Source of the DNA: a virus | Virus genome (UHGV): UHGV-0131811 | Reading direction: 5' to 3' (one strand) | Length of the DNA stretch: 64,000 nt | Shown here: piece after piece, positions 37,070 to 37,486 of the stretch | Layout: each line of letters starts with the position of its first letter | Numbering within the stretch: the stretch's first letter is position 1 | The notes under the pieces: generated by a model | Told to the model about the DNA's origin: nothing | Databases searched by the model: none | Seen by the model: the letters and a program-made list of their open reading frames with translations, nothing else | Position numbers and translations under genes: made by a program

Positions 37070-37074
37070 AGTTG

Positions 37075-37102
37075 TTGACATAGAAAATTTGGTGAGTATA
37101 CT
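37075..37102 (+). promoter_or_regulatory. sigma70-like promoter (TTGACA-16 nt-TATACT) with inverted repeat overlapping -10
   Basis: Consensus -35 at 37075..37080 and -10 at 37097..37102; GGTGAGTA (37091..37098) pairs with TACTCACC (37123..37130). Confidence 0.5.
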
Positions 37103-37167
37103 GAGCAGCATAAACCAACGGGTACTCACCAACATCACTTAAGAGTCTTCTAAGAGGGTTTTTAAGT

Positions 37168-37262
37168 AATGTGATGTTTGGTTTGGTGTGGTCAGGTAAT
37201 GTGATGTCTGGTTTAGTGCGGTGATGTGCGGTCCGGTAAGGTCCGGTGCGGTAAAGTGCGGG
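37168..37262 (+). repeat. phased pentamer array A: 19 units with invariant GT every 5 nt
   Basis: Read directly: aatGT gatGT ttgGT ttgGT gtgGT cagGT ...; no open frame. Confidence 0.9.
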
Positions 37263-37302
37263 TAGTTAGTCTCAGCTACATTAAAATGAGACTTACCTTT
37301 TT
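37261..37302 (+). terminator. type-1 hairpin (AGTCTCA / GCTACATTAAAA / TGAGACT) followed by TTTTT
   Basis: 7-bp stem plus GGTA/TACC extension, then T-run; same loop with a different stem in locus 2. Confidence 0.45.
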
Positions 37303-37329
37303 AAAAGGTCTTTAAGAGGGTCTTTTAAT

Positions 37330-37399
37330 AAGGTGCTGTATGGTAAGGTGATGTCTGGTGTGGTAGGGTGAGGTTAAGTGAGGTGAGGTATGGGTGGAT
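37330..37399 (+). repeat. phased pentamer array B: 14 units NNGGT
   Basis: aagGT gctGT atgGT aagGT gatGT ctgGT gtgGT agGGT gagGT ... Confidence 0.9.
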
Positions 37400-37425
37400 G
37401 GTAGTAGCCACGTTAAAAATCTACC
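37400..37425 (+). other. type-2 hairpin (GGTAG / TAGCCACGTTAAAAAT / CTACC)
   Basis: 5-bp stem; locus-2 counterpart has GGCAG/CTGCC, a compensatory change. Confidence 0.4.
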
Positions 37426-37486
37426 AAGTTTCTAAAGAGTCTTCTGTTGAGGGTTCTTTACAAACAACTTAACAATCAACTAAAGT

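Follow-up and report, generated by a model that had tools for sequence, protein, structure and literature searches.

Phased pentamer arrays of a Felix O1-like phage as probable guide RNA genes of a type II VIPR locus

We analysed a 64,000-nucleotide stretch of the virus genome UHGV-0131811 (referred to below, at its full length, as the window), in which an initial annotation had described positions 37,070 to 37,486 as a non-coding locus made up of a promoter followed by two modular units, each with an array of pentamers carrying G and T in a fixed phase. Judged from its sequence, this region is very probably one half of a type II Viral Interference Programmable Repeat (VIPR) locus of the SUSP1 clade, its arrays being vrRNA genes that encode guide RNAs. 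The identity of the arrays is to that extent already known, as the system was reported in 2026 from a phage that encodes a Vipr protein 97% identical to the present one. As far as the text of the two preprints describing the system goes, what may still be new are the leader hairpins that precede the arrays, an orphan hairpin in front of the vipr gene, the composite structure of one array and the specific target predictions.

As set out in those preprints (bioRxiv 10.64898/2026.04.26.720920 and 10.64898/2026.04.26.720927, 2026), VIPR consists of Vipr, an ancestral RAMP protein, together with vrRNAs composed of 9-16 YNNGG repeats and a pseudoknot tail. One Vipr protomer occupies each repeat and sequesters its GGY, which in the solved ortholog is flipped into protein pockets (10.64898/2026.04.26.720927), and the NN dinucleotide pairs with DNA by a 'one-nucleotide-skip' rule (target NNxNNx), with the result that transcription is silenced (10.64898/2026.04.26.720920, 10.64898/2026.04.26.720927). 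The vrRNAs of SUSP1, about 100 nt in size, are expressed as small RNAs, co-purify with Vipr and confer sequence-specific transcriptional silencing; reprogramming of the NN positions redirects this silencing, and the vap1 gene raises protection; in the SUSP1 clade, delimited by more than 90% Vipr identity, a phage satellite accounts for 18 of the 20 natural targets (2026 VIPR preprints).

Phased arrays and the Vipr protein

The window belongs to a Felix O1-like myovirus. Over 701 bases around the locus, identity to Salmonella phage SeKF_63 is 99.1%; this stretch matches 231 phage records, nearly all of them from phages of E. coli, Salmonella and Shigella. We scored the phasing of GT at a 5-nt period by sliding a frame of 14 consecutive pentamers along the full window. 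Scores of at least 8 (maximum 14 of 14) were confined to four clusters, at 37136-37291, 37298-37423, 38573-38688 and 38705-38830, and elsewhere in the 64 kb the score reached about 7 at most. The phased pentamers noted initially are therefore real and far above chance, with comparable arrays nowhere else in the window. The corresponding test for AC, which would reveal an array on the minus strand, never exceeded 6 across the window. We had also considered a Rho-utilisation site on the minus strand and dropped it, since the promoter, the terminator-like T runs and the structures described below all lie on the plus strand. The four arrays, A to D (Table 1), form two pairs that flank two genes, the second pair lying 1.1 kb downstream of the first. 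Over all four arrays there are only three exceptions to GT, in agreement with the 'about 3 deviations' first counted, and because each of these is GC, the conserved base is better described as a pyrimidine.

In line with the non-coding status proposed at the outset, no open reading frame (ORF) of at least 30 amino acids spans any array, except for a 34-amino-acid ORF with a GTG start at 37368-37472. The GenBank record of SeKF_63 annotates 'hypothetical proteins' of 29 and 34 amino acids over the arrays (L189, 2327-2416 and 2469-2573), which correspond to 37226-37315 and 37368-37472 of the window; these look like gene-caller artefacts, given that the arrays are hypervariable between phages. Other public labels are 'DR_4' on parts of the arrays in phage wV8 and 'possible binding site of StbAB' in phage KhF3, neither with supporting evidence, and we conclude that the public annotations of this locus, hypothetical proteins included, are misleading. 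The genome papers of Felix O1 and wV8 list other direct repeats and nothing on these arrays. An Rfam search of positions 36000-40000, with E values up to 10, returned chance snoRNA-like matches only, and no curated family covers vrRNAs.

We then examined the repeat code in 74 distinct arrays, drawn from the window and from 26 loci of related phages. The phasing, whose absence from relatives would have spoken against the initial annotation, was present in 27 of 27 related loci examined. The second G of the repeat is G in 98% of cases and the third position is a pyrimidine in 100%, the first G being G in 77% of repeats, and the two following positions are hypervariable, with entropies of 1.95 bits (N4) and 1.89 bits (N5). 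Arrays contain 7 to 19 repeats, with a mode of 12. Across these relatives, a few conserved types account for the leaders and the tails, and the guides vary with the phage.

To ask what travels with such arrays, we scanned IMG/VR for (GTNNN)x9 and recovered at least 120 loci, most of which are neither Felix O1-like nor simple tandem repeats, with 10-24 different pentamers per array. All ORFs within 5 kb of the arrays were clustered for the 106 loci whose arrays are diverse and non-tandem, namely the window, 26 further loci of Felixounavirus and 79 loci unrelated to that genus. The top-ranking cluster was the family of the window ORF 37487-38089, which contains vipr; it was found at 68 loci (47 non-Felix), with a median separation of 90 nt from the array. 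The second was the family of the ORF at 38092-38532, found at 35 loci, always on the array strand, and accompanying arrays at 15 non-Felix loci. As both families rank at the top of this clustering, the arrays and the two small genes constitute a module that travels together across unrelated phages, an association that we established independently of, and before, the VIPR literature. A Vipr homolog thus lies within 5 kb at 47 of the 79 non-Felix loci, and the remaining 32 may be cut by contig ends or carry a divergent Vipr. Numerous unrelated viral contigs carry phased arrays (IMG/VR loci L064-L177, among them L066, L067, L086, L100 and L177). Non-Felix contigs also show variant conserved triplets, (A/G)GT-NN, TGT-NN and GTT-NN, the GTT-NN arrays being bounded by AGTCGG...GTCGG, and L100 and L177 are contigs of the kind that carry 9-13 arrays in a row.

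The 195-amino-acid product of vipr differs from PDB entry 36pp, 'SUSP1 Vipr protein', by only five substitutions (positions 6, 18, 119, 189 and 190), and its identity of 97.4% exceeds the 90% that delimits the SUSP1 clade. A profile of 45 homologs matched a single PDB entry, again 36pp (E = 2e-79), as did the single protein used as query. An AlphaFold (AF2) model of the protein has a mean pLDDT of 94.3, and its top Foldseek matches are Csm3 and type VII Cas7 chains of CRISPR effectors, with a probability of 1.00. All 13 of the 13 residues that we checked from the contacts listed in the structural preprint (10.64898/2026.04.26.720927) for GGY reading and DNA holding are conserved: H17, K33, R39, E71, M72, K82, G87, K88, R138, C173, D177, W178 and R179. 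The preprint text also names T175, where the window protein and the deposited 36pp chain both have V175. From the two-gene locus described in the preprint, we infer that the ORF following vipr is vap1, a gene whose product is predicted to bind DNA. Neither protein has a significant Pfam match (Vipr has none at all and the vap1-type ORF a single one below threshold), and in PHROGs both match families of 'unknown function' only.

With regard to distribution, 130 phage records encode Vipr, as compared with the 231 that match the ligase-to-vipr region, and on these counts some Felix O1-like phages appear to be without the VIPR module. Distant Vipr homologs (32-44% identity) are present in Gordonia, Mycobacterium, Pseudomonas and Vibrio/Listonella phages. 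The 147-kb record GU169904.1, 'Staphylococcus phage SA1', carries at 91679-92263 a Vipr gene 99% identical to the Felix O1 type together with the adjacent ligase region; this content is odd for a Gram-positive phage and suggests a chimeric or contaminated record.

Together, these data indicate that the early suggestion of a binding array for a phage protein pointed in the right direction, as each pentamer would be the footprint of one protomer of the protein encoded just downstream, by analogy with SUSP1. That suggestion did not extend to the identity of the partner, Vipr, or to a guide role for the variable dinucleotides.

Predicted targets in an E. coli satellite

When the locus was compared by BLAST with complete E. 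coli genomes, an 84-nt vrRNA-like match was found in 74 chromosomes. It led to a satellite of about 12 kb, integrated at yecE, near tonB or near wrbA, which encodes a serine recombinase, a baseplate protein, a tape-measure protein, an HNH endonuclease and small hypothetical proteins. At least partial matches to this element are present in 559 of 5426 E. coli genomes (~10%), and most of the element in 122. It likely parasitises Felix O1-like phages.

We scanned the four guides of the window against ten satellite loci, including L178, that of E. coli strain EC12, NZ_CP070229. Under the skip-1 rule, each guide found a site in the EC12 satellite (Table 1) at which 81-89% of NN positions match, in keeping with the 80% or more expected of natural VIPR targets, whereas skips of 0, 2 or 3 gave background only (15-19 matches). 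In 300 trials per guide against L178, shuffled guides reached the full-length score once for A (26/38), twice for B and never for C or D. The target sites recur in 4-5 of the 10 sampled satellites, among which the skipped bases vary. Within the window itself the best skip-1 match was 0.63-0.71, and there is no self-targeting. Found together here are vipr, its contact residues, YNNGG vrRNAs, a pseudoknot tail, a vap gene and skip-1 targets without self-targets.

If these parallels hold, transcripts of the vrRNA genes of the window would build up as small RNAs about 100 nt long, as experiments have established for SUSP1. Vipr, a minimal Cas7-like RAMP protein, would polymerise on the repeat tract with one protomer per YNNGG, again as in SUSP1, so that GGY is flipped out and buried in Vipr pockets, the two variable NN bases are left exposed and the 3' pseudoknot caps the filament. 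The filament would then read double-stranded DNA as NN-x-NN-x, skipping one target base per repeat, to form a gapped R-loop that blocks transcription, and the predicted outcome is silencing of the ~12-kb satellite in E. coli chromosomes.

Several observations weigh against this interpretation. Arrays B, C and D (13-14 repeats) fall inside the published range of 9-16, whereas array A, with 19, falls outside it, and its first repeats have TG in place of GG; moreover, the first six repeats of the array have no detectable target, only the 3' 13 repeats matching. None of the target matches is perfect among the ten sampled satellites. The 3'-most repeat, usually TATGG, never matches a target and behaves as part of the tail. 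The bases skipped by guide D fall at the second codon position of the annotated ORF and not at the wobble position, and the target of guide C is non-coding. The promoter at 37075, as the driver of all units, and the T runs after tail A and vap1, as terminators, are putative. Finally, function in this phage is transferred throughout from SUSP1, by analogy, and both sources are preprints.

The satellites can carry guides of their own. A vrRNA gene is present in 6 of the 10 sampled satellites (L178, L179, L180, L181, L185 and L186); that of L178 (14925-15100) has a TTGACG-17-TATAAT promoter, a pseudoknot tail of the unit-B type and an intrinsic terminator. Satellite-borne vrRNAs are also mentioned in the VIPR literature (2026 preprints). 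A tblastn search of the ten sampled satellites found neither vipr nor vap1, so that the satellites presumably borrow the Vipr of their helper phage. Scanned against the window, the satellites' own guides scored at background level (0.68-0.69). The EC12 satellite guide matches a REP-like palindrome (AGGCCTGATAAGCATAGCGCATCAGGCA) at L178 19570-19607, between cmoB and torZ and outside the satellite, at 22 of 26 NN positions under skip-1, above the maximum of about 21 obtained with shuffled guides of the same length. This could be chance, or the guide could read a repeated host element.

Leaders, tails and the composite array

Table 1. Features of the locus and predicted target sites (window coordinates unless marked L178, the E. 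coli EC12 satellite locus)
Feature	Position	Strand	Description
Sigma-70-type promoter	37075..37102	+	TTGACA-16-TATACT; consensus scan 11/12; likely start of upstream vrRNA transcript
Leader hairpin, unit A (La type)	37137..37167	+	~13 bp, G-U-rich; minimum free energy (MFE) -11.6 kcal/mol, z = -3.4
Array A, vrRNA A repeat tract	37167-37261	+	19 T-NN-(G/T/A)G pentamers in T-N-N-G-G register
vrRNA A 3' tail	37262..37302	+	Pseudoknot: S1 GTAG/CTAC, S2 AGTCTCA/TGAGACT, A-rich loop, then TACC and T run
Leader hairpin, unit B (Lb type)	37298..37333	+	MFE -13.2 kcal/mol, z = -3.1
Array B, vrRNA B repeat tract	37329-37393	+	13 YNNGG repeats
vrRNA B 3' pseudoknot tail	37394..37425	+	GTGG/CCAC; GGTAG/CTACC
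Orphan leader-type hairpin	37428..37465	+	No array; directly before vipr; MFE -13.6 kcal/mol, z = -2.9
vipr	37502..38089	+	195-amino-acid RAMP-fold protein; 97.4% identical to PDB 36pp 'SUSP1 Vipr protein', E = 9e-128
vap1-type accessory gene	38092..38532	+	146 amino acids; 99% identical to ORF after vipr in phage SUSP1
Intrinsic-terminator-like hairpin and T run after vap1	38544..38568	+	Sequence scan
Leader hairpin, unit C (Lb type)	38563..38598	+	MFE -12.3 kcal/mol, z = -2.3
Array C, vrRNA C repeat tract	38594-38663	+	14 repeats
vrRNA C 3' pseudoknot tail	38664..38696	+	GTAG/CTAC; AATCG/CGATT
Leader hairpin, unit D (La type)	38701..38731	+	MFE -13.0 kcal/mol, z = -3.8
Array D, vrRNA D repeat tract	38731-38800	+	14 repeats
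vrRNA D 3' pseudoknot tail	38801..38832	+	AAGG/CCTT; GGCAG/CTGCC
Predicted target, guide A (3' 13 repeats)	L178 8634-8671		21/26 skip-1; tape-measure gene; skipped base at wobble position (hand calculation from annotated coordinates)
Predicted target, guide B	L178 10352-10389		21/26 skip-1; gene annotated 'transposase'; ten consecutive NN perfect
Predicted target, guide C	L178 14588-14628		25/28 skip-1; non-coding, upstream of the satellite's own vrRNA
Predicted target, guide D	L178 11646-11686		23/28 skip-1; 108-109-amino-acid hypothetical gene

The promoter proposed initially stood up to a consensus scan, and the region is probably transcribed from it, as read from the sequence. A single structured non-coding RNA of about 190 nt had been envisaged; the non-coding RNA part of that proposal stands and the single molecule does not, since the units are separate and measure about 100-135 nt each. 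The hairpin reported after each array likewise corresponds to a real structure, one better described as an H-type pseudoknot than as a simple hairpin. In this fold a 4-bp stem is interlocked with a 5-7-bp stem across an A-rich loop, and the four tails of the window use four different stem sequences. Among 19 distinct tail variants from related phages and satellites, pairing was possible in 98.8% of cells, with compensatory changes in 8 of 9 pairs, as compared with 30-44% when the partner columns were slid, a comparison to be read with the caveat that there are only about five independent tail types and that the structure was derived from those same sequences.

The conserved leader motif, GTCTT(N1-4)AAGAGGGT, was likewise borne out: it occurs exactly four times in the window, once ahead of each array and nowhere else, where 0 occurrences are expected. 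It forms part of G-U-rich leader hairpins of 12-14 bp, with compensatory changes at 4 of 12 consensus pairs. The type of leader tracks its upstream context, Lb following a T run and La following ...CATCAC. In IMG/VR, a scan for the motif beyond Felixounavirus-sized contigs gave mostly single, apparently chance matches without arrays. We also weighed the motif as a phage promoter and do not favour that reading, TTAAGAG-type words being scattered in the window without promoter-like context; by eye, the Lb leader bears a weak resemblance to TTAAAA-17-TTTAAT, and the La leader has no usable -10. As the stem is G-U-rich, and hence strand-specific, we prefer to read the leader as an RNA hairpin. The text of the two VIPR preprints, as far as it was available to us, makes no mention of a 5' leader or hairpin. 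The array-less hairpin in front of vipr aligns with the vrRNA leaders, and its start is kept in 20 of 21 related tails examined.

Array A is composite, in that the 11 nt with which repeats 1-6 begin, TAATGTGATGT, recur at the start of the block from repeat 7 onward. This shared start, together with the lack of targets for the first six repeats, suggests that array A is a recombinant or duplicated array, and hints at guide turnover by recombination between arrays. In two relatives, L017 and L021, one array runs straight into another, head to tail, without an intervening tail or leader. If the suggestion is true, recombination between arrays would offer a route of guide turnover without acquisition machinery.

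Taking these features together, we tentatively propose, with rather more doubt than confidence, that the leader hairpins are a dedicated element of vrRNA biogenesis or of array boundaries and that composite array A reflects guide sets renewed by recombination. The leader could be a processing site that frees the 5' ends of guides, or a stop for the Vipr filament, and the orphan hairpin could couple vipr expression to guide maturation.

Other readings and relation to known systems

Three other explanations of the arrays were weighed against that of vrRNA genes. They could be a protein sponge or attenuator RNA that titrates or positions an oligomeric RNA-binding protein, in the manner of TRAP sites or of CsrB, in which case the dinucleotides are mere spacers without a guide role. 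TRAP sites are (G/U)AG repeats, and the GGA motifs of CsrB bind CsrA. A conserved triplet with a 2-nt spacer does have the 5-nt period of TRAP sites, and occupancy by one protomer per repeat does occur in the SUSP1 ortholog. However, the supposed spacers match four sites in one mobile element under one spacing rule, far above shuffled guides, and reprogramming of NN retargets silencing in the SUSP1 ortholog, which makes a pure sponge very improbable. We give even less credit to the two-tetrad G-quadruplex (G2N3) raised by the initial annotation, as a structural or regulatory element in DNA or RNA. GGTNN repeats are numerous, so that runs of GG-N3 do exist, but only 77% of repeats have G as their first G, and half of the repeats in array A carry TG or AG instead; furthermore, a quadruplex needs neither the invariant second G nor the pyrimidine, and the GGY bases of the solved ortholog are lodged in pockets of the protein.

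The explanation we find hardest to credit is that of a DNA element, whether a replication origin, a cluster of primase sites or partition-type iterons. It draws on the position of the locus among replication genes and next to DNA ligase, on the GGTC sequences within the arrays, which had been noted as possible primase sites, and on the StbAB annotation in the KhF3 record. Unlike iterons, however, the array sequences are hypervariable between near-identical phages, and the flanking structures, G-U-rich hairpins and a covarying pseudoknot, are strand-specific. The arrays moreover accompany vipr in unrelated phages irrespective of their replication modules, and each GGTC amounts to no more than GGY plus the variable base next to it. 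There is no other sign of an origin.

Read as vrRNA genes, the arrays illustrate how raw sequence alone revealed the RNA half of a system reported only in 2026, through a phased-dinucleotide signature that can be detected by eye. That system was presented as RNA-guided DNA recognition by a new logic and as a proposed ancestor of CRISPR effectors. For annotation, four vrRNA genes, vipr and vap1 would replace the 'hypothetical proteins' and 'direct repeats' of current records. The analysis also yields a concrete prediction of the opponent of this phage, namely a satellite that matches at least partly in about a tenth of complete E. coli genomes, and the leader hairpins and the composite array may offer starting points for studies of how vrRNAs are made and how guides turn over.

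Among known systems, TRAP of Bacillus resembles the present one in its triplet repeated with 2-3-nt spacers at a 5-nt period and in the binding of one subunit per repeat on single-stranded RNA. It differs in being an 11-mer ring of unrelated fold that acts in cis regulation, with uninformative spacers and no DNA targeting. At our locus the triplet is (G/U/A)GY, not GAG or UAG, and the partner has a RAMP fold, so that the spacing logic alone is alike.

Class 1 CRISPR-Cas effectors, in which Cas7 or Csm3 assembles on crRNA, share with VIPR the RAMP fold with its thumb and glycine-rich loop, one protomer per fixed RNA step, periodic base flipping and RNA-guided recognition. In VIPR, however, each step covers 5 nt, of which two are read and three hidden, as against a 6-nt step with one base flipped; the guide is non-contiguous, with the target skipping one base in three; and the system is carried by a phage and directed against a competing mobile element, with no nuclease here. 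Neither a CRISPR array (identical repeats of 25-40 nt with unique spacers) nor cas1 or cas2 was found at the locus, where the repeats are 5-nt units with two variable bases and the arrays are separated and flanked only by vipr, vap, ligase and small hypothetical genes. On the modelled structure, the locus appears to be related to CRISPR-Cas through the RAMP fold only.

The closest counterpart is the VIPR locus of SUSP1. The phage of the window is a Felixounavirus and SUSP1 a Suspvirus, the vrRNA genes are arranged 2 + 2 in the window and 1 + 3 in SUSP1, and all four guides differ, with array A of the window being a 19-repeat composite with degenerate first Gs. The two loci nevertheless share a Vipr that is 97.4% identical and a vap1-type gene that is 99% identical, the gene order of ligase, vrRNA(s), vipr, vap and vrRNAs, YNNGG repeats, pseudoknot tails of the same four sequence types and predicted targets in the same kind of E. 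coli satellite.

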